Shown one piece after another: positions 3,960 through 63,337 of a stretch of 64,000 nucleotides of DNA. A program made the translations under genes and the position numbers. This DNA comes from Balamuthia mandrillaris (taxonomy: Eukaryota): assembly GCA_031835245.2 (NCBI GenBank), contig JAVKOQ020000112.1, forward strand, positions 62,001 to 126,000. The letters run 5' to 3'. The first letter of the stretch is position 1. Each line of letters opens with the position of its first letter. The notes below the pieces were generated by a model that was not told the origin of the DNA, did not search any database, and saw only the letters and a program-made list of their open reading frames with translations.

Positions 3960-5390
3960 TTAGTGGAAGAGGGTGTGGGCGAGCGAGGGACCATGCTCGT
4001 CGTAGCTCTGCCTGAACATCCAATTACTCTGAAAGGTGGAGAGGGAGGAGAGGATAGAGCCACCGATCCATGTCGCGTACTTCCTTTCTGGCGGGGCAAT
4101 GACCTTCACTTTCATGGTGGCTGGTGCCAATGCGGTCACCTCTCGCTGGAGGCGGTCCGCGAGGCCAGGGAACATGGAGGAGCCACCCGTTATCACAATG
4201 TTGCCATAAAAGTCCTTTCTGCAGTCGATGGGGCAGTTGGTGATGGCATTGTAGAGCAACTCGTGAATGCCAGGTATCTCCGAGCCAACAAGGTCGGGTT
4301 GGAAGAGCACCTCTTCGGTACAGCGAAAGAGCTCGCTGCCCAGGCGAATGACCTGCCCATCGGGCAGCTCGTAGTTCTTGGTCCTATCGCTCTCGTTGTA
4401 CAGTCGCTGCTCCGTCTCGTAGTCCTCCGCAACATAGCAGAGCTTCTCCTTGATGTCGCGGACGGTCTCATGCTCGGCGGAGCTGCTGGTCAGGTCGTAG
4501 CCGCTCCCCATGAGGAGGGTCTTTAGGCGGTCGGTGATGTCCCTGCCGCCAAAGTTGTGGCGAAAGGCTCCGCGAGGAGGAGAGTAGCCGTTGATGATGG
4601 GCAAGGCCTGCGCCACCCCCTCTCCTAGGCACATTGTGATGGCGGTGTTGCGGCCTGTCGAGTAGAAGGCCAGCAAGGGCCTTCTGGCTATGTAAAGGGC
4701 CGGCACGTTGAACTGCTCCATCATGATCTGCGTCATCATCTCTCGGTTCGCCCTCGGGTTGAGGATGGCCTCGCTCAGCAGGACCGGGTGCTCCTCAGGG
4801 TCCACCCTGATCTCGTTGAAGAAGGTGTGATGCCAGATCTTCTCCATTCCCTCCCAGTCCCTCACAATGCCATGCTGCATGGGAGAGGACAGGTTCAAAT
4901 AGCCTCTGTTGCAATGGGCCTCGTCCCCTACGTATGTGTCCTTCACGCTCCAACTGTAGTGGATACCGTTGGCGGCAAATGCCTTGTTGCTCCTTCCTAT
5001 GAGAGAAGGAAAAACACTGCGAGGGGCGTCGTCCCCTGCGAACCCCGCGCAAGTCATGTGGCTGCCGTTCGTTATGACGAGAGGGGTTACCTCCCCACGA
5101 CCCAGCAGAATGCGAAAGGGGGTTTGGCAGCCACGCGAGATTGTCCAGTCGGAGAGCTCCCTGAAGCCTTCTTCTTTGAGAAGCAGGGAGGCCACTTGCA
5201 TGACGGCGGGGGCGGGCTTGGGCAGGGTCGTCCTCCACTCCCGGCAGACGCCGCGGGCAATGCCCCGCATTACCGGCGAGAGAAAGGAGAGGACGTGGCC
5301 CCATATCTCCCAGGGCAAATTGGGTGTCGTGTTCACGTCTCCCTGCACGTGGCCTTCCTGGGTGGGCTTGTCTTGTTGCGACATGTCCAT
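3960..5390 (-). CDS. F-box domain fused to a divergent full-length actin; intronless
   Basis: N-terminal LPWEIWGHVLSFLSPVMRGIARGVCREW (F-box pattern), then AGFAGDDAPRSVFPS, WEGMEKIWHHTF, YELPDGQVI, APPERKYATWIGGSILSSLSTFQ (actin signatures). Confidence 0.9.
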   Translation of the reverse strand: MDMSQQDKPTQEGHVQGDVNTTPNLPWEIWGHVLSFLSPVMRGIARGVCREWRTTLPKPAPAVMQVASLLLKEEGFRELSDWTISRGCQTPFRILLGRGEVTPLVITNGSHMTCAGFAGDDAPRSVFPSLIGRSNKAFAANGIHYSWSVKDTYVGDEAHCNRGYLNLSSPMQHGIVRDWEGMEKIWHHTFFNEIRVDPEEHPVLLSEAILNPRANREMMTQIMMEQFNVPALYIARRPLLAFYSTGRNTAITMCLGEGVAQALPIINGYSPPRGAFRHNFGGRDITDRLKTLLMGSGYDLTSSSAEHETVRDIKEKLCYVAEDYETEQRLYNESDRTKNYELPDGQVIRLGSELFRCTEEVLFQPDLVGSEIPGIHELLYNAITNCPIDCRKDFYGNIVITGGSSMFPGLADRLQREVTALAPATMKVKVIAPPERKYATWIGGSILSSLSTFQSNWMFRQSYDEHGPSLAHTLFH

Positions 5391-5577
5391 GCGGTCTTCC
5401 CTCTCCTTCTTCTCTTTCTTCTGGCCGCTTTCTTTCCACCGACAGGCACGGCAGAAGGTGGGTAACTCGGTAACCCCAAATCTACCTTTTTGTTTTGCCC
5501 TGATCAGATGTTACCCGTGTCGACACGATCAATCGACATTTTTTTTTGTAGTTTGTATCAGTGGAAGAGGGGTGACG

Positions 5578-8500: not shown

Positions 8501-8891
8501 TGTCTCTGTCTCTGTGTCTCTCTCGCTGTCTCTGTCTCTGTTTCTCTCTGTCTCTCTATCATCCTTTGTGGTGTTGTGCTAATGAAAACAAAAAAGGGGA
8601 TTGGGAAGGCTAGGAGGATTGATGGGATCCTCCAAAGGAAAGACGGGAGGTAGGCGGCCGAGCGACGCACCTATCATTTTGTTGTTTGTGGTGGGTGGCA
8701 TCACATGCAGCGAGCTGGAAGTGCTGAGCCGAGTGGCTGCCTCCTCCCCTTCTCACCAGGTACTCTCTCCTTCTTCTTGTTTTTGTAAAAAAAGAAGTTA
8801 ACTGGGACCTCTGTAGGTACTAGTAGGCAGCACCGCTATGTGGCATCCTTCGGACAGTAGCATGCACCGCTCTATTGCGGAACGCTGTTAA
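5578..8891 (+). CDS. Sec1/Munc18-family domain protein (SCFD2/MIP3-like), multi-exon
   Basis: VVYVDGPAAEILRW, EEIYALGATS, KVALLLVDR-TLD, C-terminal ILLFVVGGITCSEL...VLVGST are typical of SM proteins. The exon model is approximate. Confidence 0.7.
8372..8556 (+). repeat. Intronic (CTTTCT)n / CT-rich microsatellite
   Basis: Tandem CTTTCT and CTCTGT units read directly. Confidence 0.9.
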
Positions 8892-36623: not shown

Positions 36624-36968
36624 TCAGAAACAACGAATTAGTCTTTTGGGTCAATGAGCATGTTTCCCGCCAAAACAACCCTTCATTCTCCCACGTCTGT
36701 GAGGGCAAAGCGGTTGGGGGGGGGGGGGTGAATGGAATGGTGCTCATGCTGATGCTGCCAATACACTTTTGTTGCTCGTCATTCGCCTTGACACTTTTCT
36801 GCTACTCGTTTTCTTTTCTTTTCTTTTTTTCTTTTCTTTTCTTTTCTTTTCTTTTCTTTTCTTTTCTTTTCTTTTCTTTTCTTTTCTTTTCTTTTCTTTT
36901 CTTTTCTTTTCTTTTCTTTTCTTTTCAAAAGTAAACACCCACGAAGCTCCACGCACCACCGTATTTCG
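36610..36968 (+). mobile_element. Degenerate fragment of the left end of the Fanzor element
   Basis: attagtcttttggg.caatgagcatgtttcccgccaaaacaaccc...gctccacgcaccaccgtatttc is shared with 43434-43710; it has an expanded (TTTTC)n. Confidence 0.85.
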
Positions 36969-37064
36969 GATTGCGGAAGAAGAAAACGAAGAGAGAAAAT
37001 AAAATACAAGGTACTTCAGAATAATTGACATTGGCTTTGTACATTCATCGTTCGTTGGAAAAAG

Positions 37065-40000: not shown

Positions 40001-42762
40001 CTTGGTAGGTCCATTAAACCAAGGATGTTTGAGGATTTTTGAAATGGAAGGACGTTTATCGGGATCCACTTGAAAGATAGACCGTAGCAGATCCTGTGCC
40101 TCTGTGGTGGAGATGAATTATTACAACACAATAGACAGTTTTACTGTGGAAGATGAGAGAAAACGTTACCGGAAGAAAGGTTTTCGGGAACTTCGTAACG
40201 AGCGCTTTGTATGTCGTTAAAGAATTGCTGGGTATTACGAGAGAAAAAGGGCGGCTTTCCGACCAAAAGACGGTAACTAGATGTTACAAGCCGTCAAACA
40301 TTAATAAGCTGCAACAAAATTTGGTAGAAAGAGTGGCACTCATACAGTATGACGCCTATAGCCCAGATATCGATCTTTTCTCCGGAGTAACATTGGCCAG
40401 CAATTTGTTCGGGAGATACATGGTAAAGGCTGCCTGTTAAGCCGGTAGCAAATAGGTCCCAACCTACCCGCAACAACGAAGTACATTAGTTTTACGCATC
40501 ATTATTTATGAGCTTGGCAGAAACCTTTTCGATATATCCCAGCGTGTCCAAAATCAGTTATCTTTAAAAGTCCGTCGTTGCTGTTGAACGGCAAGCCAGA
40601 TCGTGCATCATTGGGCGCACAAGCAAATAAGTGAGGTTGCAAACAAAACAAAAAGCACACTAATAAAACGAACAAAGAAGGTGTCGTTAAGTACCTAATC
40701 AAAAGGTTCTCTAATTTAAGATCTCGGTGACAAACTCCCTGCATCAGGTATATAAAGTTCAAACACCGACTCCAAATAAAGCAAATAATGGCAGACAAAC
40801 CTTCTTGTGGCAATATCGTACACCGCGCAACAACTGCGGCATGAAGTATCTAGTCACCTTTTCTGAAAGTGGCTACCAACAGTAGCGACAAGAAGAGGAA
40901 TAAAAAGAATAATAAATATAGAAAAAGAAAAGAGACAAGCAAGAAAAAAAAAACGTTAGAGAGCGTACCTTAATATCCGCATAATTTGAGATTGACCCAC
41001 CACCACAGAGCTCCATGACAAAGAAAACGCGATCCTCACTTTCAAGCACCTCATACAGCTTAACAATACTTGGGTGATCCAGCATCATCATTGCCTTATA
41101 TACGTCCAGTCAATTAAGAAGAACGATACAAAGGTGAGGGTTTTTACAAAACCTTGAGTTCGACATCAACTCGAGACATGTCGCTGACATCGCCCTGTTT
41201 AATAATTTTAATGGCTCGGCGTTCACCTGTTTCCGAATTTATTGCAAGTCGAACAACTCCGCTGCTTCCTGCGCCCAGTTTGCGTTTGAGCTCATACTTC
41301 CCGATTTGCTTGCGCTACATGAAAAGCCAGTTAGTAATGTTGGCCTCCATTTGTGATGGAACTAATAAAAAAAGTGCCTTTTGGGACCCTTCTTCATAAT
41401 ATCTCATGATGAGGTCAGCTAAAACCATAAACTCATCTTTTGTAAGAAACCCCGTCTTATCAGTGTCATACTCATCTAGCAATCGCTGTGCGACGCTATG
41501 CTTGTCACACTAACAGAGTCAAAGTTATAGATGAGTCAATAAATAGGGAGGCTTAAAACAGGAGAAAATAAAAGTTTTGGTGAAGTACTTTATCGAACGA
41601 AAGGTTTTTAGTATCTATTCCGTCCTTTTCAAGGGCATTTAGCACAAGCTCAAGCTCTTTAACGCCTAAATCTCCGTCTCGGTCAACGTCCGCCTTCAAT
41701 GAAGAAAAATCCATTTAGCATGAATTTTACCTTTTTTTTTTATAGGAGTTGGGGAGGTACCAGTCTAAAAAGCCAGGTCATATATCGTTTACGGCCTTCA
41801 CTACGACGAAGCAGGTTGTTCAGAAACTTTTTTGTATCCTCTGACAAAAAGGCTTCAGTTCCAGAGTTCAACGGAAGCACAGCAGACATAGCCTCTGAAA
41901 GGAAATAAGAATGGACAAAAGCAGAGAGCAATGGGTCAAGGGTCACCCTAATCATTACGAGCGATATGCGTACCGTGCAAATACTTCACTTTGGGAGAAC
42001 CCTGCCCAAGCAGCGCAGGCGTCTCAGTATCTCTCGTCCAGTTCAGTTTCGATGCTAAGAAATAGTGAGTCCTCCCTACGACACCACAAAAGCACCACAT
42101 AACATCAATGAAAAGTCACCTCCAACTTGGTCTAGTGTGGTCCAGCAAGGCGAGTCCCTGAGAATAATAAGGAAAATTGAGGTCAGTCAGCCAGCCACAC
42201 AATTTTTACAGCTGGCCGCCATCAAGCGTGCCAATGGCGCCCAAAGGGAACTCTGCAAAGGGGAGGATAAGCTCACCCAACGTCGTCGTCTGAGAGATCT
42301 CCTTTCTTCTTCTTTTTCTCTCGCTTTTTCTTGTCTTTGTCTGAAAGCTTCTTATCTTTACCCTCCCGTTTTTTCTTGTCATCTTTGCGCTTCTGTTTGT
42401 CGAACTTTTTCTGATGTGCTTGCAAATGCCGAAGCCATTTCTCAAACTCTTCAGGGTTAAGGGAGCCATCTTCCCCATCATCGAACTGTTGAAACGAGCA
42501 ATACAGAGGAGCAGAGGAGCAGAGGAGCAGAGAACCGTAAACCGGGAGGGAAAGAGAAAGAAGAAACAAGAGCATGAGAAAACACTGAGGAAAGACCGCC
42601 AACGATACGTACGCGAAAGAGAAGCAAAGGAGAGTGCGTAAAGGGGCACTGAACTTCTGGTAGCTTGCTGACCGTCAAAAGGTCATCCAGGGTGAGGACG
42701 CCATCTTTCGTACGGTCTAACTGCTCAAATATCTTTTTAGGTTGGGAGTTTTCATTCCCCAT
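37065..42762 (-). CDS. EF-hand-containing Ser/Thr kinase (CAMK/SNF1-like) with a long charged tail, multi-exon
   Basis: MGNENS start; EF loops DRTKDGVLTLDDL, DDGEDGSLNPEEF, DVDRDGDLGVKEL, DTDKTGFLTKDEF; kinase motifs LGAGSSGVV, AIKII, HRDLKLEN, DFG, SPEQ, DIWAIG. Confidence 0.85.
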
Positions 42763-43972
42763 AGTCCACAACCAGACTTGCGGCGGCTGGCCCAACTCTG
42801 CCCAAAGCCCACGTTGTTGACGTTATAGAAGGAGAACAGGTGGGTGATCAAGTTTCTTGCCAAGCTCGAGCTGTAAACAAGAGAGCTGCTTCTCTTCTGA
42901 GCTATCGTTTGCACTACCACTTGTGCAAACAAATTGCTGGAAGCCTTTGGGGGGGTTTGGCTTGTTGCAGTGGGAGGATAAAAGGCCGAAGAGGAAGGCC
43001 ACCAACGCTTGCCTTCTTCTTCTCGTTGTTGTTGTTGTTGTTGGGCTGTATGGAGGGGGGCTTCACAAGGGGCGGCGCTGAGTTTTTCGGAGACATGACC
43101 CCCCAACTAAATTTTTGATTTATTTTCAAGCCTGATTAAAACAAGTGTTGTGTGGGTGCCCGCCCGTTTGTGATGCTTGTGGTTGGGGAGTGGCCGTGGT
43201 TTTTGTTGTAGGAATAGTTTTCAATCACTCTCATCTTCACAGGGGGGAAGTGGTTCGCCATATCTTCTTTGTGCATGGGAATGGTTTCCCAATCCTCTCT
43301 TCTTCGCGTTGGGGCGCAATTCACAACATGCATGGGAATTATTTGTCCAGCCTCTTTTCATGAATTGACAGTGTCAAAATAAGGCGGCGCAAAGATCATA
43401 AGATCTAAGGACAACGAAAAAAGAAATCACGACATTAGTCTTTTGGGCCAATGAGCATGTTTCCCGCCAAAACAACCCTTCCTTCTCCCACGTCTCTGAA
43501 GGCAAAGTGGTAGGGTGGGTTGTGGGGTGGGGTGAATGGAATGGATGCTCATGCTGCTGCTGCCGCCAATAAACTTTTGGTACTCGTCAGTCGCCTTGAC
43601 ATTTTTCTGCTACTCGTTTTCTTTTCTTTTCTTCTCTTCTCTTCTTTTCTTTCTTTTCAAAAGTAAACACACAGACACACATCCACGCAGCTCCACGCAC
43701 CACCGTATTTCTCATTGCTACGCTTCTACTACACAAGGAGGAAACCAGCCGAAGGAGGCAGAGGTGGAAACCGAAGCGGTTCAGCCGCAGGCAGGGGCAC
43801 TGCTCCGATTGAAAAGGTAGCGTTCTTTTTTCTCTGCTCGCTCACTACATTTTTTGATGATGGAAACAAAATTTGTTACCAACCACTCACTAATGATTTC
43901 TTTTGTTTAAAAAAGAACAGCATCACGAACCTCTGTGCGCCTCTTCCACAACGCTGCTGGAAGCTGGCCTGA

Positions 43973-45716
43973 ATGGCAAGTTGCCCACAGTGCGGAAAAA
44001 AGTTTGCTACCTACCTCTCACGGGTTGGCCATCCACTTCGGTCGGGTTCACAAGGAAGGGGGTCGCGCCACTACTTCTGCTACTTCCACTGCTACTCGGA
44101 AAAGAAGAGCGGAAAACGCCCCAGCGGCACCTCAGGCAAGGGCACAGAAGCGTGGTAGGCCGCAGGCTGCACCTGCCCAGCCCTTTTGGAACCAGTTTTC
44201 CAGCGAAATCGGGAGAAGATTAATACGCCCGGAAGCCTTGTGCTTGGAAGAACCCTTTGCCTGTGGTTCAGGATGGTTCACCGCCTGCAAGCACATTCCT
44301 AACGGAGAAAAGGTGTTGGAGGAGGAGGAGAAGAAGAAGGAGAAGGAGAAGGAGGAAGAGGAAGAGGAAGAGGAGAAGGAGAAGGAGAAGGAGAAGGAAG
44401 AAGAGGAGAAAAACCAGAAAGGCTTGTTAGGCCTCATCGAGGGACTCGTTCCGTCTCGCCCAGCCGTACAGCTCACCAAAAAAGGCAAGAACGGAGAGGA
44501 GAAACCGGTAGTGGGGCGAGTGGAGAAGATCCGCCTTTATCCGCGCTCAGAACAAAAGAAGACGCTGGCCAAGTGGTTCGGCACAGTACGATGGACCTAC
44601 AACAAGGCCGTGGAGTTCCATCGTGAACATAAAGGAATGCCTCTTAAGGAGATGAAGGAACAAGTCAGGGAGAAATTCCTGAATAACGGCAATTTCAACG
44701 GAGAGGACAAGAGCCTTGCGTGGGTGTTGGAAACTCCTCGATACATTCGCAGTGACGCCGTCGATGATTTCTTCAACGGCGTGAAAACCAGCTTGGCGGC
44801 GGGCAGGACTGGATTCAAGATGAAGTTCCGTGGTCGGAAGGACAAGAGCCAGTCTCTCAGCATCCAAGCCAGGGAGTGGAACCACAGCAAGTCCATCCGC
44901 CAACTCCTCTTCGGGGAGGCGCGAATCAAAGCGAGGGACAAGAACTACAAAGTTCCGTCGGAGGTGCTCTATGCCGTTCGTCTGGTGAAAGACACTCGAC
45001 TGGGCCATTACTACCTCTGTGTGCCTCAGCCTTTGAAGCTCATGGGCGAGAGCCAAGCCCGTGAGCACCGAAGGAGAGAGGCAGGCATCATCGCCTTGGA
45101 TCCAGGAGTGCGCACATTCATGACCACCTACAACGGCTGCGGGGAGGTCACCGAGTGGGGCAAAGCGGATATCAACGAGATAGGCAAGCTGTGCCACCGC
45201 CTGGACCGCATGCAGAGTAAGGGCACCAAGGGCAACCACAGGCAACGGCGCCGTCTCCGAAGGGCCGCTGCTCGGCTTCGCCAGAGGATCCGCAACCTGG
45301 TGGATGACCTCCACAAAAAGCTCGTGTTTTGGTTGGTCAAGAACTTCTCCCTCATCCTTCTGCCAGAGTTCAGGAGCCAGCAGATGGTGCGGCGAGGCCA
45401 CCGCCGCATTGGCTCACGAACGGCCAGAGCCATGCTCACCTGGTCCCACTATCGCTTCAGGCAGAGGCTCCTCAACAGGGCCCAGCAATTTCCGTCCTGT
45501 ACGGTCTGCCTCTACGATGAGGAATACACTTCCAAGACCTGCGGCAAGTGCGGCCAAGTCCACCACCAGTTGGGGGGAAACAAGACCTTTCGGTGCCCCC
45601 AACCCGAGTGTGGCTACCAGGCCGATCGAGATGCCAACGCCGCCCGAAACATCTTGATCCGCTTTTTCACTTTACAAGCACTTACCACCTCCTCCTCCTC
45701 TGTGAGGGGGCGGTAG
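43973..45716 (+). CDS. Fanzor2 (IS607-TnpB-derived RNA-guided RuvC nuclease) with N-terminal C2H2 finger; +4 frameshift at 44007-44014
   Basis: PFWNQ, KIRLYPRSEQKKTLAKWFGTVRWTYN, RuvC-I IALDPGVRTF, LLPEF, DEEYTSKTCGKCG...CPQPECG, RuvC-III DRDANAARNI. ATG 43973 joins the long frame only if one CTAC copy is removed. Confidence 0.93.
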
Positions 45717-45792
45717 GCGGTAAGGTTGCTTTGGTGCCGGCACCGTTGCTTATAGCGAGTCGTAAGACAAGCCGTGATTAGGCACGCCGGAG
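45717..45792 (+). ncRNA. Putative Fanzor omegaRNA scaffold (5' end may overlap the ORF)
   Basis: Lies directly 3' of the ORF. Hairpins ggtgccggcacc (45733-44), ttgct-tat-agcga (45746-58), gtc-GTAA-gac (45759-68), cgtg-attagg-cacg (45773-86); gccgg (45786-90) is complementary to ccggc (45737-41). Confidence 0.6.
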
Positions 45793-45889
45793 GTGGGTTA
45801 TTTTTTGTGTCTGTTTTTTGTTTTCCTTTTACTAATTTTGCTTTATTTTCGTTGTCCCATTGATCGGCTTGATCTTGGCGCCGCCTTAG
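45793..45889 (+). other. Predicted 97-nt spliceosomal intron containing the element's right TIR
   Basis: AG|GTGGGT donor, U-rich body, ACTAAT and TTGAT branch-like motifs, no AG before the terminal TTAG. Its 3' part matches the RhoGEF intron at 57579-57693. Confidence 0.65.
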
Positions 45890-45909
45890 TCATTTTGACT
45901 GTCAAAATG

Positions 45910-48260
45910 TATTATTCAAAGAGAACAAGAGGTCTGCCAAAGAAGAGCTCGAAGGGTTTGGAGTCTGAGCGACGGGATATTCACTGATTTAAGGCGAATT
46001 GTGCGATGGGGGAGGAAGGTAGACCAGGTCCGAGGTCACCTTTAAGGGATTTCAGAAGCATGGATTTGGTGAGCTTGACGTGGCTTTCTGCAGCTCTGTT
46101 GGCTCGCGGGTGGCACGAAGAGATGAACCGATGGTCGAAACTTGCCTGGTCACGTACCGCGGACATGAATTGGTTGACAAATTCAGTGCCGTTGTCAGAC
46201 TGGACTATTTTGGGGAAGCCGAGCTCGCAGATAACCTTGACAAACTCGCGGGAGACTGCGGATTTGTCCTTAAGAGGGCGGAGAATCGTAAAGCGAGTGG
46301 CGATGTCCGTGATGCTGAAGATGTACGTGAGGGAGCCGGGAGTTGGCTGTCATCGAGTTCATTTTTGGGCTTTGGGGTCAGAGTTTTGGCGTTCTGAGGA
46401 ACTTGAGGAACATTCAGCGGTGCGTTGCTGAGGATGGAAGGGGAGTACAACCGTGAAAGGGAGTCCTCTAAGATGTGGTGAATTCCAGGCCGGTGGAAAA
46501 CCTCGAAGTCGGAATGGAAAATCACGAGAGCCCAGTGTGCAAGCACGCTATTGAGGTCTTTCGCGTTGAAAAGATGCACAAGGGGTCTGTGGTCGGTGTA
46601 GAGTAAGAAACGTCGGCCGATTAGGTAATACCAGATTACAGTGGAATCTGCGGGGGGCGAAGATGAAAGCAAGCAGCTCTCTTTTGATGGAAGGATGATT
46701 GCGTTGAGCGGGGTTAAGAGCCTTGCTGGCGAAAGAGAGTAGCTACGTTTGCCGTTATCGTCTTCTTGGAAAGTACAGGACCAACACCGTGCTGAGAAGC
46801 GTCGGTGCCAACACGAAAGGGTTTGTCCCAATCTGGTGCGCTTAGAATGGTTGGACTGGAGATGACGCGCTTGAAAGTATTGAGTGATCTGGTGAAGACC
46901 AAGATGTCGTCCACATGGTGGGAAGAGATATCGATCAGGAGGCGGAGGGCGGCTGCGATGAAGCGGGACATGACAGCCTGAACGTGCTTGACGCCGAAAG
47001 GTGCGCCCACGAGTCGTACGCCATACCATGTGAAGGTAAGTTTTTTCTGATGCGGTGGATAAACCAGGATTTGGTTGTAGGACCAGACGAGGTCCAAGAG
47101 GGTAGCCCATTTGAGGCCTAGAGCTCGTTCGATGAGAACCTTGGTGTCCTCGATCGGGTACTCGTCGTCGGCGAGGAGAGAGTTAATGCCGCCAGACGGT
47201 GATGTCTGCGCTTGGCTAGAGTTGAGTGCTGCAGGCTGGCGGGGTTTACACTGATGACCAGGATGCCAGGGCGCTGAGCACTTTGCTTTTGGGTGCTGTC
47301 TCATCAGCTTTATGCGTTTACATTCGGCTGCTGAGTGTCCGGATGTGGGGTGAAGAGCGCAGCTGGTGCTAGAGGGAGCCTTGTGCGCGTAGAGATTAGC
47401 TTCGACGCTAAGGGCTATCTGCACAGCTTCATCGTACTTCTCTGCGTTCCGCGAGAGCAGTACGTTGCTGACTGATTCCAGGAGACAAGGGTTGAGGCAG
47501 CGTTTCAGCGCGGCTGTCTTTCTGGGCTTCAGACGGCTGCTCAACCATCTGTTGAAGGATGTTGTCAATCCTCTCGATGACCTTTCTCACCGGTTCCTTG
47601 GGTCGGTGAGTCAGCTTGAATAAGTCGTCATGGAGACGGGTTTGAGTTCCGCGCTGCCGAAGGGGGTGGCGTAGACGTCTCTGGCCTGATGCCATGGCAA
47701 GCGAGGTATAACTATGTTGTTTTGCACCCAGCTGGAAGCGGTCTTAGACCCTTGTGTGTACTTTGCTAGGGCCATGTTCCACATGTTGGAGATGCAGGTT
47801 GACAATCTGAAGGTTGTTCTCCAGTTGCCGAAGGAAGGGTTCCGGGTCGCCGTCACGTTCAGGGTTGTAAGCGGGAAGACCAGTCGGAATCTTAGAGGAA
47901 AACGAAGGAGAGTCCGGAGAGGTAGGTCGTGCCGAAGGGGAGAATAACGCTCTGTAAATGATAGATCAGCTGCACGGTAGGGGGTGTCCGCTACACAGGG
48001 TGTACTGTCGAGAAGAGGCTCTCTTCGCCTTTGACCTTTTCGGGCTCGGTGTGTTGTTGCCGTTGGGCTAAGGCCACTTGGTTGAGCTCTATGCGCTCCA
48101 GGCGGTCTGCTATTTTGTTCACGATGCGGGTGTTTCGAGACAAAGACGGACTCGTCTGTGCTTAAGGAGGGCATCAACAGCTTCTACGAGGTAGGAGATG
48201 TTGGAGGTTTGAAGCTCGAGGCTGTCGAGCCGTTTGGAGGGGTATTGGGGGTCTTTCTGC
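45910..48260 (-). mobile_element. Decayed, internally deleted Ty3/Gypsy LTR retrotransposon
   Basis: Gag-like region; RT fragments LDL..YNQI and HVDDILVF; RNase H FRVGTDASQHGVG and FLLYTDHRPL; integrase VQSDNGTEF and HPRAN. Frameshifted; no LTRs identified; boundaries approximate. Confidence 0.85.
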
Positions 48261-48316
48261 TCCACTTGTTTTGTTTTTGTTTTTGTTTTTTCTTTTTGCA
48301 CTTGACATGCAACAGA

Positions 48317-50650
48317 ATGGAGGGAGAGTGCGCCCCGCTCCTTATCAATTATCCAGTAACCCTGTTAGAGTTTCTGCAAACCCTGCCCATCGAGACTGGA
48401 ACAAGGTCAATACTCTGTTACAATCCGCCCGGCTTTCCCTGCACCGCGAGGGGCAAAACCTTGGCAGCTATTTATAGCGCTTTTGCGAAACGACTCGACG
48501 CAAGGAACAACGCCGGTGCGGCTTCAGATGATCGCAGGGCAAACGCGCTACCATGCTTGCAGGCCTCTCCTGGTGGCGGCAAATCTTTTTTATTGGATGA
48601 GTTGGCAGCACTGAAGAAAACCGACTTGGAGCTCTGCGAGAGCACTACGATGAGAGAAATTCTCCTCCAAAGCGTCGCCATCTCGATAACCTTCAACAGC
48701 AGTTCGACGCTCGAGTCTGAGGTGGAGAAAGACCTGGACCCCGTGGTGACTCGTGTGCTATGGGCCTACTTCTTTAGCACAAAAAAGATGAGCTTCCCCA
48801 CCTTTTGCCAGGCACTCTTCGCCAAGTATGCCGAAACGGCAAACACCTTTACGCTGGAAACCGCCTTGGCTTGCATTCGTCTGCACCTCGCCTCTGCCGC
48901 GAGTCCTTCATCTTCTGCTACTCTCCCCTCCACACCCATTCTCCTTTGTGTTGACGAGCTGTTGAAGGTGTCCTCCGCCCCACAGCCCGACATAAATGAT
49001 CCACAAGTCGCAAAAGCTCTCTCCTCTATTGGCAAACAGTTAAACCGCGACCCCTACTTCAACGTTGTGGTATCAACTCTTGATTCAGGACCTGTGTTGG
49101 TGGAACAAACCCGCTCTGGAAGGCCAATCACTTGGATACCCTTGCCCCCTCTCACACTGAAGGACTCCCTTTTGCTATTCAAGCCCATTCTGGACAACGA
49201 GGAGGACATGCGGGCCAAGGTCAACATAGCGCTTGCCATATCCGAGTGTGGTGGTCATCCTCGTTCATTGGAAAGCCTGTGGCTTGTTCTGCATGATCCT
49301 CCAAACAGTCGGTATTTTTCATTCCCAGAGCTGGTATCGCTGGTGATAGACCGCATGCTGTTGGTCATTTTCCCCATGCAAGCCCTACAGATCGCTCTGC
49401 TTGGTATTCCTTTTCCCCTCGACACGCCAATCGAGTCTGGGCCGCACAGCACGTTGCCTCGCACAATCCGTTCAGAGATAGCCTCTGGCCTATTTCTGAA
49501 CGCTTTGGAATCTGCTGGAGAGACTGTTGCTATCATTCCACGCCTTTCCCCCCTCCGCTTACGTCAGTATGCAAAATTTGGTACTCGGGATGACCTGAAC
49601 AAGTGTCTGGCCAGCATGCTGGCAACTGAAACGAACTTTAGTGGTTTAACATTCGAGCATTTTCATGCTTGGTGGGAAGTACTGCGACGTCTGCTCCTTC
49701 TCAACTCAACCTCACTGTTGGCTGCAGCAACCTTCCATGAGGACAGGCCAGTTCAACTTGGGCAACTCTACAACATCAATTCCGACGTGGAGTTCCTCTT
49801 CCGGAAAAAGAAAGGGGTGATGCAGTTACGTAACCATTTCCCTTGCACCACTGCTTCTGCCGTGTTTGCTGCAGACGGAAAGGAACTCTCCCTCAAGGAC
49901 CTGACGAGCTATGTGCTCATGCCAGCTACAGGCAACCCTGGGTTTGACATTACCCTAATTGAACAAAAGCCTGACAACCGGGGCTACATTGTTATCAACA
50001 TTGAGTGCCGATATTCTCATCCTACCTCTGGGACACAGCTCACAACATCAGAACTGGAGCGGAAGTGGGAGCTCATGCAACAACAGTTTCAGCCCCTCTT
50101 CACTAGGTCTTATGGACAAAAACCAAAGGAACTGTATAACATGCAACTGAAACTGGAGGATGTTTACTTGGTGGTTTGTGCCATTCGCCAGTCTGCCCTG
50201 GTGTTACCAGATTCATTGCCACAGTTGCTTGTGCTGGGCCGTGAGAAACTCCAAGAACTGTACTCGCCTACCCTAGCAATGCGATCACAATTCCTCTCAG
50301 GTCCAGAGTGGGAATCACTTATGCATGCTGCAGCCCTAACAACGGAAAGCAGCCTTGGGCAGGGAGAGAAATATGATGAAGCAGAGCTTAGTAAGTTGCG
50401 TATCAAGGATCTGAAAAAAATCCTGGCAAAGGATGGCCACAAGACAAGCTTTAAAAGAAAAGCTGACTATGTGTGTTTTATCATTCAACATTGCTATAAG
50501 CCCAAGCCAGAACCTATTAAAAGAAAACGGTCTTTATCACCTGTTGAGGAAGAAGAAGAAAAAGAAAAAAAGCAAGAAAAAGCAACAAAAGCAAAAGATA
50601 TCAAGGGAAAAGAAAAACAAAGTCAATATAAAAAACCAAAGAGTAAATAA
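48317..50650 (+). CDS. Crinkler/RHS-type effector-like protein: P-loop NTPase + restriction-endonuclease-like domain + C-terminal HeH/SAP-like motif
   Basis: Walker A SPGGGKS, Walker B ILLCVDE, GGHPRSL, NPGFD...IECRYS, LSKLRIKDLKKIL...KRKADYV. ATG 48317 follows a polypyrimidine tract and CAG, so an upstream exon is possible. Confidence 0.72.
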   Translation: MEGECAPLLINYPVTLLEFLQTLPIETGTRSILCYNPPGFPCTARGKTLAAIYSAFAKRLDARNNAGAASDDRRANALPCLQASPGGGKSFLLDELAALKKTDLELCESTTMREILLQSVAISITFNSSSTLESEVEKDLDPVVTRVLWAYFFSTKKMSFPTFCQALFAKYAETANTFTLETALACIRLHLASAASPSSSATLPSTPILLCVDELLKVSSAPQPDINDPQVAKALSSIGKQLNRDPYFNVVVSTLDSGPVLVEQTRSGRPITWIPLPPLTLKDSLLLFKPILDNEEDMRAKVNIALAISECGGHPRSLESLWLVLHDPPNSRYFSFPELVSLVIDRMLLVIFPMQALQIALLGIPFPLDTPIESGPHSTLPRTIRSEIASGLFLNALESAGETVAIIPRLSPLRLRQYAKFGTRDDLNKCLASMLATETNFSGLTFEHFHAWWEVLRRLLLLNSTSLLAAATFHEDRPVQLGQLYNINSDVEFLFRKKKGVMQLRNHFPCTTASAVFAADGKELSLKDLTSYVLMPATGNPGFDITLIEQKPDNRGYIVINIECRYSHPTSGTQLTTSELERKWELMQQQFQPLFTRSYGQKPKELYNMQLKLEDVYLVVCAIRQSALVLPDSLPQLLVLGREKLQELYSPTLAMRSQFLSGPEWESLMHAAALTTESSLGQGEKYDEAELSKLRIKDLKKILAKDGHKTSFKRKADYVCFIIQHCYKPKPEPIKRKRSLSPVEEEEEKEKKQEKATKAKDIKGKEKQSQYKKPKSK

Positions 50651-51170
50651 AGGACTTTGAAATTAAGTTAAAATAAAAGTGTTATCACTTTCACAATACC
50701 TATTCCTATTTTTCCTTGTATATAATTCTTTCTTTCATTTTAATAAAGGTCTTTTCTCTTTATCCATCAAGTTAGTGTTTATTAGACTTTTTTATTCTTA
50801 TTTTGAAATTTATAACATGAACTTGTGTGGAGCTAGATAGCAAAAAGTGTATTGCAAGTTTACAAAGTTCACTGTGATTAGAGTTTGTAGAACATAATTG
50901 AACTAGTTAATCAAGGCCTATTAGAAAGAATAGCTATAATGTTGACAAAATGGCTATGTTGTGCTTTTTTTGAGACAAGTCAATGAAAATTTTTAATTAG
51001 AAATAAATGGGGCTTGGTAATTGCCAACCCAAAGAAGAAAGATTTGATGAATCCTATTTGTTGGCAAACATTCTTTTCTTTGCTTTGCTTTTCTTTTTTC
51101 TTCCTTCTTTCCTTTGTTTTCTTTCCTTCTTTCCTTTGTTTTCTTTCCTTTCCTTTGCTCAAACAGATAC

Positions 51171-51285
51171 TGTTGAAGGGGATAAACTTTGCAGATCAAG
51201 AAAGAGACTCTGGGTTTATTCATAAGAGGTATGGACCAAGTGTGTGCTTTGAGTGTGTCATGAGGAAAAAGGGAAAATAAGAGAA
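51171..51285 (-). repeat. Degenerate partial copy of the 200-bp LTR
   Basis: Reverse complement matches the 3' part of 56203-56402 (gcagatcaagaaag..gactctgggtttattca..ggaccaa.gtgtgtgctttga). Confidence 0.8.
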
Positions 51286-51676: not shown

Positions 51677-52615
51677 AGTAGTAGTAGTAGTAATAAAAAG
51701 TTTATTTGCTCTGAGAGCAACACCAATCTATACATAAAAAGTAAGCCTTGTACATACATAGTGTACTCCTTACTTCTCTTAATCCCTCATCCTCAATGCC
51801 TTCCCAATTGTAATTCAAATACACAAGTGGAAGGTGTTGAATGAGATTTCAGACTAACTTTGTATCATCTAGCTATCCTTTTCTTTCCCTTTCCTTACTT
51901 CTCTTTTCCTTGCTATTACATTACTTCCAAAGATTGATAAAATGAAGAAGCTTCCATGCTTCCAACTTACTCTTGCTGCCCATAATCTCCAGACTCGTTT
52001 ACAACTTTGCTTACATTGTTCCATCTCTTGAGCTCTGTTACATTTCTTTCCACTTGACAGGAGCTTTGTTGTACAGGCTTCAATAATCAGCTTTCTGACT
52101 TGTTCTTCACTTCCATTGTCCACACTCCAGATTCTAAAGCGATCTTCCCAAAGGTTAGGACACCTTAACAGGAAGTGTTCTGCTGTTTCTTCCTCAGCAT
52201 CACATGCAGGGCACTTGCTATCCACCTCAGACTGCTGAATGGATCCCCACTTTTTTCCAATAGGCAGTCCCCCACAGCGAATAGCATTCATCAAACGTTC
52301 TTTCCTTGGGTTGGTAATCACTAAGCTCCGTTGTTGTCCAACCAAACATCTTCCATTTGTCAAGAAGTTATGCCATAGCCATGCTCTTGTTCCTCTTTCT
52401 CCTTCAGCTGCATACTCCATCTTGGCTACTCGAGTTAAGGCCCTCATCCTCTTGGCTTTCTTTTCAACAACTGTCGTTCCGTCACCTCCCTCACCTTCAT
52501 TCTTCTCCCCTTCCTCTTCACTTGCTTGGCTTACCTCTTCAAGTAGCTCAAAGTGGCCATCTTGCCTCTCAGCATGATGAATTACTGCTTGTCTTTCCAA
52601 CTCACACATGGGTCA
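51677..52615 (-). mobile_element. 5'-truncated non-LTR retrotransposon (LINE) 3' end
   Basis: zf-RVT-type CPACDAEEETAEHFLLRCP, 3' UTR, AATAAA and (TAC)n tail. Confidence 0.85.
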
Positions 52616-53573
52616 TACTAATTTGAGAGAACAACCAGGAGTAAAGACAAAGGAAATGAACAGAATTTTTGTAAACAAAACCCACTGCTTTGAATGATAA
52701 AATTATACTACTTTTCTATCAATCCTTATTTCTCCTTGTATAATATATTAAAGTCAGCAGGGACTGTTTTGTTTCAGGTTCACAAAGGGCAAGTTTGGCA
52801 GCCAAAGCCAGGAGCTAGCCTAGAAGGACAGTGTTGATAAAAGAACAGAATTAACAAATATAGTCTACAACACCCATTGTCTACTAAGAGTGTTAATAAA
52901 GTTTTACATAAAAAGAAAAGTCAAGGTCATGCTTGACTCCTGTGTCATTAATAGCTTTATTTGACAAATGCATTTACCCAGAGAAGTGAGGATAAGGAGC
53001 TTACAAAATAGAGATATATGGAGAAGTGCTACTGATCATGAGGTTAACTGAATGTCACTCTTTGTTTTAGATGTATTTGTAAGAATAAATATTGGACAGA
53101 AAGCATGGCTTTTAAAGCTGGCCCATACAAGAATGTCTTTTGCTACAAGCTTCTTGAGCAAGGAGGTATAAAACTTATAAATGTACCAACCTAAGGAAAA
53201 AGAGTTGATGATATGACAAGAAGTGTATTCAAGAGAATAGAGAAAGGGAAAAGAGAAAGAGAAAAAAAAGACATAAGAATATACCATTAAGCACAAGGAA
53301 CCTTAATAATTGTTGGTGAATTTACCAACACTTTGTGAAGTGTCCTGCAAATGTGTGTTGAACACATAGTATTTAACAATGGAATAAGTCCTGTACAAAG
53401 CAAGGTCAATGTAATGCAAGTTTGTACAGATTGTTTACACTGTACTACTAAAAAGCAACTATAAAGCTTTATTGGATTTGCACTAAGTAGTAATACTACT
53501 ACTACTACTACTACAAGTTTATTCATCATTGCACTAAGATGGTAAAACCTTGCACTAATTACACAAGCTTGAA

Positions 53574-54143
53574 AAAAAGTGGGGATCCATTCAGCAGTCT
53601 GAGGTGGATAGCAAGTGCCCTGCATGTGATGCTGAGGAAGAAACAGCAGAACACTTCCTGTTAAGGTGTCCTAACCTTTGGGAAGATCGCTTTAGAATCT
53701 GGAGTGTGGACAATGGAAGTGAAGAACAAGTCAGAAAGCTGATTATTGAAGACTGTACAACAAAGCTCCTGTCAAGTGGAAAGAAATGTAACAGAGCTCA
53801 AGAGATGGAACAATGTAAGCAAAGTTGTAAACGAGTCTGGAGATTATGGGCAGCAAGAGCAAGTTGGAAGCATGGAAGTTCTTCTGCATTTTATCAGTCT
53901 TTGGAAGTAATGTAAGCAAGGAAAAGAGGAAAAAGGAAAGGGAAAGAAAAGGATAGCTAGATGATACAAAGTTGGTCTGAAATCTCATTCAACACCTTTC
54001 ACTTGTGAATTGAGTAACAATTGGGAAGGCATTGAGGATGAGGGAGTAAGAAAAGTAAGAGTACACTATGTATGTACAAGGCTTACTTTTTATGTATAGA
54101 TTGGTGTTGCTCTCAGAGCAAATAAACTTTTTATTACTACTAC
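53574..54143 (+). mobile_element. Second 5'-truncated LINE copy with a 14-bp target-site duplication
   Basis: Near-identical inverted copy of 51677-52258; TSD tacacaagcttgaa at 53560-73 and 54144-57; (TAC)n tail. Confidence 0.9.
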
Positions 54144-54181
54144 TACACAAGCTTGAAGTTTGAGCTAAGTTGTATTTGATG

Positions 54182-55020: not shown

Positions 55021-55169
55021 AGTAAAGCACTCTTTAAGTAGTAATATAGGTAAAATTCAGGCTGATTATGTTTGTAACTATTGACATACTTAACTATTTA
55101 ACATATATTCTATCTTCCTTGGGACCTTTCTGGCCTAAACTACACAACTAAAAAAACACAGAAGCCACT

Positions 55170-55369
55170 TGTTGGAAAACCAACCATTATGAGTTCTTGT
55201 TGATACTCTCCCTAATACCTCCAAATTTTCTCACCCTTTTTATTTTCCCCTTTTCCTCATGACACATTCAAAGCACATCCCTTGGTCTACACCCCTTTTC
55301 TTGTGAATAAAGCCAGAGTCGCTTATGTGCCATCCCTTTCTTGATCTGCAGGGTTATTCCCCATCAACC
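55170..55369 (+). repeat. Solo LTR (200 bp), CpG-decayed, flanked by CACT
   Basis: TGTTGGAAAA...CCCCATCAAC(C); cact at 55166-69 and 55370-73; homologous to 56203-56402. Confidence 0.85.
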
Positions 55370-55685: not shown

Positions 55686-56202
55686 ACCTATGCATTGACC
55701 AGTAACTATGATAGGATGCCTAATTAACTGCTTATTAGTTGTATTGATTGTATCTAGTTAGCAAAATGCCAGGAGCTAGCTCATTCAAATTCTTACTTTT
55801 TCTCTTTCTTATTAAAATGAATTGTATACTCCATTAGTTTCATAACTTGTAAAATCTCTCTTAAGGGAAAAAAGAAAGGTCAAAAAGAAACAGCAAATTC
55901 TTTTGCAAACCAACTCTACTTCATGAAAACATACCTACCACTACTTTAAAACATAATAAAGCCAAAAGCAATATCAACAGTCTATATTCATAACACATTG
56001 AACAACCTTGCTCAAGCTAAGAGTATTAAAGTTTTTTATATAATCATTTCATTATTATGAAGATAAGTTTACAAAGCAAGGGACATTGACAAGCAGAAAA
56101 TCATTCAAAAAGATAACCTTTAATGTATAATAAAACATTTTAGGAGTAGTAATGGTAATAAGATGTTTATTTATAGACTTTTAGATAAATTATTAAAATA
56201 TT

Positions 56203-56402
56203 TGTTGGAAAACCAACTATTATGACTTCTTGTCGACACTCTCCCCGATACCTCCAAATTTTCTCGCCCTTTTTATTTTCCCCTTTTCCTCGCGACACAT
56301 TCAAAGCACACACTTTGGTCCACACCCCTTTTCTTGTGAATAAACCCAGAGTCGCTTACGTGCCGTCCCTTTCTTGATCCGCAGGGTTATTCCCCATCAA
56401 CA
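56203..56402 (+). repeat. Solo LTR (200 bp), CpGs intact, flanked by TATT
   Basis: TGTTG...CAACA termini, internal AATAAA, tatt at 56199-202 and 56403-06. Confidence 0.88.
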
Positions 56403-56422: not shown

Positions 56423-58165
56423 TTATAATTTTAATGTATATCTTCGTATTAAATTTGTTTTTTCTTTTTGTTTTCCTATTTTTGAATCATCTTTTACAAG
56501 TTTTGTTTTTTGAATGGTTTCATTTTGTGGAATAATATCCACAAAATGATAATTATTTTTTTTAGCTTTTTTTTGAAGTAATGGAAGAATATCATATTTC
56601 AATTCTTGTAAAGCACTTTGAACATTATTATCTTTAACATTAATAATAAATGTAGTATTTACTTCTTTGTTATTACTTTCTTTGCTTTTAAGAGTCAATA
56701 TGGCACCTATTTAAAGTATAATTAATATTTTAAAACAAATGTTATAGAAATTTACCTTGATTTAAATCATATAAATTCAGTTCCACATTAGTTATAGGAG
56801 CATATGCTATTAATTGCCAAGAAAACGGAGCCTGAAAAAAACTTAAAAAAAAAGAACTACTTGATTGTCTATTTTTTGAATAAAAAAACATAAATAATAA
56901 AATGAGTTTTGTTTTTGTGAATAAAACATATTAAATAAACATAAAATGATTTACCTTTCTTGTGCTAATACTAAAACATCTGTAAATAGAAAAAAAGCCA
57001 AAACCACGGGAACAATTAAAAGATTTGAGGCATTTGATTCTTTACATTCAAACTGTCCTTCTGTTATCAATAATCGTTGGTCATTAGAGAAAAAGTCCTA
57101 ATTATAAGAATTTAGTTCATTAGTTCTTATTTGTTAGTAATGAATTCAAATAAGTACCAAGGGCTCAGCAAAATGGCTTTGAAGGTCTAACATTTGCTGT
57201 TTTACTTCTGCCATTCGTTTTTGTTCATTAATGTATGCAGTGACTTGTTTCATTTCTTTAACAGCCTTTTTAAGGTTTTTGTAGTCTCGGTGCTGTTTTG
57301 TTGTCTTTTTCAAAAGCTCTTGAAGTAAGAGCACGTATCTAAAAACGAAGTACTGATGAGACAAGCAAAGCAAAAATAAGATTGAAAGGAGGAAAGAGAA
57401 AGATAGAGTGAGATGATATTGTGATGCTAAAACCTTGGCAAACGTTGTATTGGCATTATAAGGTAGTTTGACAAACCCAGAACCGCATGTTCACGGTGAA
57501 CCCCTTCTAAAAAGCGGATGACCTTCTTTCGCTTTTGGCATTCCACCAAGGTTTTAATTGAGAGGTCATAGTTGTTCACTAAGGCGGTACCAAGATCAAG
57601 CCGATCAATGGAACAACGAAAATAAAGCAAAATAAGTATGGGGAAAAGGCAGAAAAAAAACAACAGCAACACTAAAAAAAAAATGTTTCATACCATATGA
57701 GGTATACACTTTAAAGCTGTCTACCTGTAGTTGATAAAGCACAAGTGGGTCAGCAGCACAGATGGTTTTGTTTGCAGAGCTTCGCACCTGTGCCAAAAAT
57801 ATATCCGCCAGCTTAGTTTTCTCAGTCCAGTCGCTGTAACGCTCGTTAAGCTTTGACAAGAAGCTACTGTGAAGAGCGAAAATGTCCTTAATTGTAGAAA
57901 AAATGGCAGTAACTTCAGACTCGCTTAGGATAGGACTACGGTCGTTAGAAAGACTATGCAGCAAGGGCTCAAAAAAGACATTGATTGCAAGATCAAGGCT
58001 CTGGACGTAACTTTCCTCAGTGGTTACGATTTCCCGAGCAATTTCGTTCCTTGTTCTGTTCAACTTCTCTGATTAACGGAGACAATTGTCAACTAAGAGA
58101 ACTGAAGGTAAACAGTAATCCTCGCCGGCGGTACCTTTGTCTAGCTTAGCGTGATGTTGGCCCAT
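56423..58165 (-). CDS. RhoGEF (DH-PH) protein with MG start, multi-exon; 3' exons not fully resolved
   Basis: RNEIAREIVTTEESYVQSL, FKVYTSY|VNNYD, LSNYLIMPIQRLPR|YVLLLQELLKKT, PH motif FFLFTDVLVLA. Confidence 0.85.
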
Positions 58166-62487: not shown

Positions 62488-63337
62488 CCTTCCTCCCTTC
62501 CTTCAACTCGTCGATCTTATGATCTCACTTGATCTTGGAATGGGTGACGTTATATGGGTGTGGGGTCAACCAACTTTGCCTTATTTCCGAAACTCCTCCT
62601 GTTCTGGTTTGTTTCTCAGCCGGCTGCAAACCAACCCTCATTTAGAATTGTACTTGAAATTTGTTTTTTTCTCTTCCTTTGTTTTTCTTTTGCTTATTTT
62701 TTTCACACGGCCACTCTGCCTAACAAACAAACATGGCGTAGCGGCCCCCCTGCGGAGTTGGATTCTCCGTGGAGCCTTTTGGGTATGTGATACAAGCCCC
62801 CTTTGAGTGTTGAACCGAGTGCTTTATGATGATAAATGTGAAATAACGGACTAGAGTTTCCGAATCTTCTATTCTAGTGTGGACTTCGCAAATCTGATGT
62901 TTTTTTTTTTGTTTGTTTGTTTTGTTTGTTTTGGTTTTGCTTGCTAATGTGCTCATACTACATCACAGTCTTGTTCACACCAGTCGTTTCACTTTTCTGT
63001 TTTATGGTACGTATGAAGTTTATTTTGTGCCTCGTTCGTGGTCTCCAAAGATGAATCATTTAAAAAAAATAACTGGAATTACCGGCTGAACTCTCCGTGA
63101 ATGAGAAGCACCATTCTGACTGGAGACCCCTCTCCCCTCCTCCCCCAAAAAAATGTGTCATTTTCCGCGCTCATTTTCCCTCTCTAGGGTGCTGTTTGTT
63201 TAACAACGGTGGCATAATGTTAGCTTTGGAGCGCTCATTGGAGGTACCTATGCGCCCCTTTGGATCTTCTCGCAAGCACTTGTGGTAGTTGCTGAGATGT
63301 TACCTATAATCTCATGCTAATCCTGAAATTTGTGATG

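Follow-up and report, generated by a model that had tools for sequence, protein, structure and literature searches.

The acceptor and the last 60 nt of a spliced intron in a RhoGEF gene of Balamuthia mandrillaris derive from the right end of a Fanzor2-bearing transposable element, an intact copy of which lies in the same 64,000-nt stretch of genomic DNA that we analyzed (hereafter, the window). In the intact element, this end has the layout of a spliceosomal intron that begins directly behind the predicted end of the nuclease's RNA scaffold. The most far-reaching interpretation, to which we assign a probability of roughly 0.45, is that the host spliceosome assembles the guide RNA of this element. 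An intron would sit at the boundary between scaffold and guide, its acceptor would be completed by the target duplication, a second lineage (locus L014) would have the same arrangement, and the element would seed acceptors and rewrite or create host introns. The host gene and the relevant parts of it are as follows.

56423 to 58165, minus strand: RhoGEF (DH-PH type) gene with eight coding exons and low expression
57579 to 57693, minus strand: GT-AG intron of 115 nt, phase 1, within the DH domain of the RhoGEF
57579 to 57638, minus strand: remnant of the element's right end inside this intron, with the branch-point region (ACTTAT), part of the inverted repeat and the acceptor TTAG

Read on the minus strand, the intron opens with GTATGA and closes with TTAG. 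As the original prediction had stated, 45831-45890 and the reverse complement of 57578-57637 agree at 56 of 60 positions (BLASTN E value of 8e-21 within the window), and both copies finish in CCGCCTTAGT. The 60-nt 3' part of the intron scored 100 against the element end, and the runner-up among about 4,240 tiles, at 33, was the element's own left end. The 55 nt of the 5' part bear a weak resemblance to the T-rich sequence that precedes the final 60 nt of the element, an equal score being reached by 8 of 114 T-rich tiles, one of which is the element tile itself. In the branch-point region at 57634, mapped reads and contigs carry the form ACTAAT, which comes from another copy or allele. Removal of 57579-57693 restores an open DH frame (...KVYTSYVNNYD...), as had been claimed, and the open DH-PH type frame requires the removal of this intron plus six others. 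The resulting spliced protein is identical to two public gene models, one of which is named for Balamuthia mandrillaris. The expectation that the element end would serve as a 3' splice site was confirmed in RNA, where the exact junction was found in two raw reads with two starts in run X19 and in one contig of run X6 (depth of 59.6), the joint being flagged "between: not known" in the RNA mapping. We treated X6, which is labeled "DNA?", as RNA given that it lacks all seven RhoGEF introns and the AlaRS intron. Runs X20 and X17 held no junction read, and the flanking exons were barely covered in both; an alternative acceptor for this intron was found in none of the seven joints listed. A second RhoGEF copy (402 aa; 95% identity) lies on another contig, and the loose-end consensus in two DNA runs indirectly suggests that both copies carry the element remnant.

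Several other features of the window were recorded. Upstream of the 115-nt intron, and separated from it by an exon of 31 nt, lies a 63-nt intron (57725-57787) that keeps the reading frame and contains no stop; one public gene model, P0132, retains it. Beside the 3' end of the RhoGEF gene, reads from other loci pile up at 56300-56402 on a dispersed 200-nt repeat, copies of which occur at 55169-55368, 56202-56401 and 51161-51280. A 580-nt inverted repeat (51681-52260 and 53569-54146; 96% identical) overlaps a frame with a weak zf-RVT match, an intronless open frame of 854 residues with no Pfam match spans 48086-50650 on the plus strand, and an actin-family frame with a weak F-box match ahead of it lies at 3960-5510 on the minus strand.

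The element that supplied the acceptor is represented in the window by the following features.

43380 to 45888, plus strand: high-copy element that bears a Fanzor2, is bounded by imperfect terminal inverted repeats and lacks a TnpA motif
43380 to 43420, plus strand: left inverted repeat of about 41 nt
43911 to 45716, plus strand: Fanzor2 reading frame, from stop to stop

The frame encodes 601 residues and has the domains of a TnpB-type protein (HTH, OrfB_IS605 and zinc ribbon), with the OrfB_IS605 match of 28.5 bits lying slightly below the curated cutoff of 30.5. A rearranged RuvC is present, in which D397, E537 and C544 are invariant across 44 sequences; a rearranged RuvC with a glutamate six residues before the zinc finger is described as a Fanzor2 trait in PMC13565253 (here and below, cited papers are represented by the accessible parts of their text). 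The best solved relative is PDB 9B0L (E value of 3e-27), which is ApmFz2 according to PMC11832414. In a 63-sequence tree, for which 62 of 127 usable loci were taken, first by identifier, the protein is nested among proteins linked to an IS607 TnpA (support of 0.92). The serine-recombinase TnpA motif was present at 90 of 147 related loci and was not found in the six frames of 41000-48000. The inverted repeats of the element match at 18 of 19 terminal bases, with a gapped extension to about 40 nt, and no convincing inverted repeats were found in the relatives among the matches listed. In its repeats and duplication, the element fits the inverted-repeat class of Fanzor2s. No Rfam family reached threshold in 43200-46200 and thus no group I intron ribozyme was detected there, no Pfam match was found in the antisense frames across the element, and the right-end motif was not found in prokaryotic genomes. 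Three viral matches to this motif were dismissed as being at chance level.

The element is present in many copies. Balamuthia mandrillaris has 12 or more related proteins in its annotation, and the depth of DNA contigs across the element reaches hundreds to thousands versus 30 to 35 on the unique left flank, this being a summed contig depth and not a copy number. Many short, internally deleted derivatives occur in DNA, several of which resume at 45801-45854. The window copy has 4 extra nt near 44007, close to the start of the frame, that are missing from most other copies. A fragment of the element's 5' interior, without an inverted repeat and with an expanded TTTTC tract, lies at 36626-36974 (87% and 81% identical to 43422-43718). 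Two short words resembling the element ends (13 and 11 nt; E values of 0.1 to 2.6) at 62513-62538 probably reflect chance or a very old remnant. About 40 nt past the element, on the minus strand, are broken remnants of a retrotransposon pol (RT_RNaseH; 45927-48200) that are multicopy in DNA.

The bases that flank the element bear on how the acceptor is completed.

43371 to 43379, plus strand: left-hand 9-bp target duplication, with CA directly ahead of it
45889 to 45907, plus strand: right copy of the duplication, consisting of G 45889 and 45900-45907 and interrupted by a 10-nt fold-back insertion at 45890-45899
57571 to 57579, minus strand: likely right-hand 9-bp target duplication at RhoGEF, consisting of the acceptor G and the first 8 nt of the next exon in a GT-N5-AC pattern, extrapolated from the two measured duplications

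The 8 bases preceding the left end are found again at 45900-45907 (control recurrence of 0.0005 at 8,686 positions). A second insertion was recognized from a left-end remnant in four X21 reads (one locus, perhaps one or two molecules), with the same 9 to 10 bases on both sides. From these two cases, one of which is split by an insertion, we prefer a duplication of 9 bp, with 8 to 10 bp being compatible. Both measured targets read CAG and then TG. Outside RhoGEF, a G follows TTA in all five readable junctions among the rows listed (the window copy, three X2 junction rows and X1 record 8) against a background of 0.23 for G; at one tandem junction, the left 9-mer lacks its initial G. Given that the 9-bp duplications start with G, TA is most likely part of the inverted repeat and the G of the acceptor part of the target. 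An alternative in which the G is encoded by the element and the duplication measures 8 bp is not favored.

This assignment differs from the original prediction, in which TA itself was the duplicated target and insertion preferred TAG. TA does occur at both ends of the element in the window, in an X2 tandem junction and in X21 reads, and mollusc Fanzor2s have TA and TAG TAMs (PMC10530073, PMC10432273). However, a palindromic TA is indistinguishable from the repeat's own terminus, and the two insertions are flanked by longer direct repeats that begin with G and not by a TA duplication of the Tc1/mariner type; empty alleles were not seen. We consider a TA duplication to be of low probability, and the preference for TAG was not borne out in detail, with TA now assigned to the repeat and G to the target. 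Left ends without TA were seen in eight X1 contigs (rows 43381 and 43383, four each); we take them to be decayed ends, yet they also speak against a fixed TA. A preference for T at 45890 in the loose-end rows of X1 and X2 was set aside as probably inflated by two RhoGEF contigs in each and by contig-length bias, and these contigs were not counted. The loose-end consensus at 45890 agrees by eye with the RhoGEF exon at 22 of 30 and 19 of 30 positions, and simulation favors two contigs.

Inside the element, two features of the predicted omega-RNA mark where the scaffold would end.

45733 to 45744, plus strand: pseudoknot hairpin of the predicted omega-RNA scaffold, with a 3-bp stem and a 6-nt loop
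45786 to 45792, plus strand: 3' strand of the pseudoknot (45786-45790) plus AG, the predicted scaffold end and predicted exon end

In the relatives, a small hairpin lies close to the stop codon, and its loop pairs with five bases located two bases short of the element end. Across 16 relatives, the five pairs were 100% paired and four were changed on both sides, with none of 500 shuffles scoring as high; these relatives were picked for their end motif, and both this selection and the alignment lean towards covariation. A descriptor of the pseudoknot fits 22 of 35 hand-picked relatives and has a single solution in the window, which ends at 45792 and is immediately followed by GT. All eight pairs of the window pseudoknot are Watson-Crick. 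Matches to the descriptor arose in 1.3% of 3,000 shuffles and 1.9% of 1,160 window tiles; with a GT required directly behind it, the rates were 0.03% for shuffles and 0.26% for tiles. Both this descriptor and the intron rule given below were devised with knowledge of the window sequence. A covariance model built on the 16 relatives, a type of model that cannot hold a pseudoknot, did not find the window scaffold. In the ApmFz2 structure, the pseudoknot occupies scaffold positions -4 to 0 and the guide comes next (PMC11832414), and the pseudoknot is required in an IS607 TnpB (PMC10711439). From these precedents and from where the pseudoknot lies, we predict 45792 to be the last scaffold base in the window, with 96 bases of the element still to follow. 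The covarying pseudoknot of the relatives would then be the terminus of the Fanzor RNA scaffold.

The remainder of the element, behind this predicted scaffold end, resembles an intron.

45793 to 45889, plus strand: intron-like right end of 97 nt, with the donor GAG/GTGGGT, the branch motif ACTAAT at 45831-45836 and no AG before the terminal TTAG; splicing is predicted

The terminal AG is at 45888-45889, and the length of 97 nt falls inside the range of 49 to 117 nt of eight RNA-supported host introns. A rule of GT, branch motif and YAG holds at 0.13 to 0.17% of arbitrary positions and also at the scaffold end in the window. The AG-free stretch was rejected as evidence, having been seen in 15% of shuffles. 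We put even odds on the model in which the right end of the intact element is a built-in spliceosomal intron, the removal of which would join the scaffold to a guide derived from the flank. We hypothesize that an IS607-type Fanzor lost its TnpA and became enclosed by inverted-repeat ends, a capture that would have placed 97 foreign bases between the scaffold and the flank. The host spliceosome would excise the 97-nt right end and so join scaffold and flank, with the final A of the repeat and the initial G of the 9-bp duplication together forming the acceptor AG, and the guide would begin at the second base of the duplication. Preferred targets of the form (C)AG/TG would fit a TAM that ends in G and would resemble host acceptors. 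TAMs ending in G have been described for other Fanzor2s (PMC10432273, PMC11832414), and a CAG-type TAM would agree with these. The element end may work as an acceptor in RhoGEF because it was likely already the end of an intron in the intact element.

A less probable alternative is that nothing is spliced in the element, which would be an IS607-type Fanzor inside a small inverted-repeat element, with a fixed guide and a T-rich end that was merely exapted in RhoGEF. The guide would then consist of the element's own next bases and be aimed at empty small elements, or be useless. In favor of this alternative, the predicted scaffold end lies inside the element, many short internally deleted derivatives occur in DNA, and a GT behind any given G is common enough by itself. 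In RNA, five X6 contigs run unspliced through the right end into the flanks, and the depth of X6 peaks in that bin. Set against this are a donor, a branch point and an acceptor that are all placed at host intron length, the same layout at L014, and a window that contains no above-chance target of a fixed guide, this being a single window.

Returning to a spliced right end, the rows listed contained neither a loose end at 45792 nor a joint at 45792-45890 or at 45719-45890, and X21 had no coverage of the right flank of this copy. The raw depth of X21, of which about 5% of the run was examined, in long-RNA libraries that lose small RNAs, averages 11.9 across 13 ORF bins and declines to 3.8 and then 0.5 in the final two bins. 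This drop fits splicing and is also compatible with a transcript end or start. One X6 contig departs from the element at 45790 into other sequence and could represent either a spliced variant copy or a truncated copy; it was left uncounted. An intron at 43845-43930 is spliced antisense to the Fanzor frame (X6 depth of 705; four X21 reads) and is missing from two DNA runs. Much of the RNA over the element is perhaps not guide precursor, given that this antisense-spliced transcript covers its 5' part. The original prediction took the RhoGEF intron as support for splicing of the element end. That stands for the acceptor, which is functional in RhoGEF, and has structural support in the intact element, but it did not extend to an RNA junction inside the element among the rows listed.

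We also considered a long scaffold that runs through the inverted repeat and the duplication and whose terminus pairs near the stop codon, in which case use of the AG as a splice site would abolish the guide RNA, as it would in an IStron. The last 8 nt of the element, CCGCCTTA, are predicted to be able to pair with 45714-45724, a competing strong donor at 45720 would delete the scaffold if used, and repeats plus duplication are predicted as scaffold in the elements treated in PMC10711439. However, the covarying pseudoknot is already closed at 45790, with 98 nt of the element still to come, and the full 216 nt fold no better than shuffles do (z of -1.0); we judge a long scaffold improbable.

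A layout like that of the spliceable right end occurs in a second lineage. Among 141 anchored loci, the descriptor was found in 33, the final bases being CG in 23, TG in 4, GG in 3 and AG in 3; loci with less than 90 nt downstream were left out of this count. At L014, which has no TnpA motif, the scaffold ends in AG and is followed by a 94-nt segment with GT, branch motif and AG (1545-1638), and this locus is the 1 of 25 relatives to which the intron rule applies. The segment is internal to the element given that it is also present in L002, a locus of the same family (1888-1966) in which the GT lies one base earlier and the contig stops before any AG. L014 and L002 belong to a Fanzor2 family without the TnpA motif, in a protein cluster of 142 members, and the L014 motif was not found in prokaryotic and viral contigs. 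In the 63-sequence tree, this family joins TnpA-bearing loci before it joins the window's protein. Since the closer neighbors carry TnpA, the comparison of sequences suggests that the intron-like layout of L014 arose independently.

As for the RhoGEF intron, we slightly favor replacement of an existing acceptor over gain of a new intron. An element copy would have landed at a native YAG/TG acceptor, and a deletion or partial repair would have stripped away the old acceptor, the left end and the body, leaving the branch point and AG of the element to take over. Acceptor replacement needs no new donor and agrees with the measured targets. The duplications share a GT-N5-AC pattern that the start of the RhoGEF exon also fits, and this speaks for a true insertion over a copied RNA intron. 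Intron gain, which concerns RhoGEF alone and is compatible with a spliceable end in the element, is possible but less probable. The element would have inserted into an uninterrupted RhoGEF exon and lost its left part, with the donor coming from the left duplication region or from the element itself. The spacing of the DH domain is preserved on removal of the intron, the first 9 nt of the intron loosely resemble the left duplication that would be expected (by eye, 5 of 9 positions without gaps), and the 5' half is weakly similar to the element. On the other hand, the intron has neither a left end nor an exact duplication, splicing after a direct insertion would miss the frame by 1 nt and require further changes, and the spliced exon has T ahead of the 9-mer, where both measured targets, like a native acceptor, have A. 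None of 19 candidate short RhoGEF fragments from relatives revealed the intron position. The original prediction had offered either intron gain from the element or insertion at TAG that regenerates an acceptor. The origin of the acceptor and 3' half of the spliced intron from the right end holds, as does the G that comes next in five of five other junctions, and the duplicated TA does not.

In molluscs and Chloropicon, inverted-repeat DNA transposons have captured Fanzor2s, and these Fanzor2* elements are a close published counterpart (PMC10711439). As described in the accessible part of that paper, they share with our element an IS607-derived nuclease, the loss of TnpA, inverted repeats, a target duplication and a retained pseudoknot. 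There, repeats and duplication are predicted to lie in the scaffold, whereas in our element the pseudoknot is complete 98 nt short of the terminus and the remainder is intron-like. The strings "intron" and "splic" do not occur in the main text of PMC10711439. IStrons are IS605/IS607 elements with a group I intron (PMC10690162, PMC13565253), and in the accessible descriptions their right end is, as here, both a 3' splice site and part of guide-RNA production. Unlike theirs, the intron of our element would be spliceosomal by its signals, confined to the end and predicted to be necessary for the guide, a cooperation and not a conflict. In an IStron, a self-splicing ribozyme excises the whole element, and splicing is in conflict with the guide RNA. 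The RhoGEF intron recalls the introners described in parts of PMC11282704 and PMC12130899 in that one splice site comes from the element end, a base is co-opted from the target duplication and removal is precise. It is unlike them in that a single such intron is known, with one in the window, one end is involved and the left end is missing from the intron; "Fanzor" and "TnpB" do not occur in the main text of PMC12130899. IS607-type Fanzor2s of eukaryotes and viruses, such as ApmFz2, have the same pseudoknot but stop at the scaffold (mostly at CG) without repeats or duplication, both of which our element has (accessible parts of PMC11832414 and PMC3627910). Fanzor1 in MuDR-like elements likewise comes with a 9-bp duplication and no transposase inside the element, but those elements carry fungal Fanzor1 and ours carries Fanzor2 (PMC3627910, in part). 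A search of open-access papers found no spliced Fanzor guide precursor and no Fanzor in Balamuthia, and none of the papers searched mentioned both Balamuthia and Fanzor. A word search of the supplements of PMC10711439, PMC10432273 and PMC10530073, one picture-only file excepted, found neither a spliceable end nor a Balamuthia Fanzor.

In summary, our study bears on how TnpB-derived systems retain a usable guide after capture by eukaryotic transposons that have ends of their own, which is an open problem. The published solution is to recode the ends into the scaffold. Splicing the ends out would, if true, be a second solution in which the conflict of the IStron is reversed, and it would tie an RNA-guided nuclease element to the remodeling of introns. 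Should the intact element prove not to be spliced, there would still be a new family of inverted-repeat Fanzor2s in an amoeba and a clean example of an acceptor derived from a transposon, and a junction of scaffold and flank, if found, would make the system categorically new.
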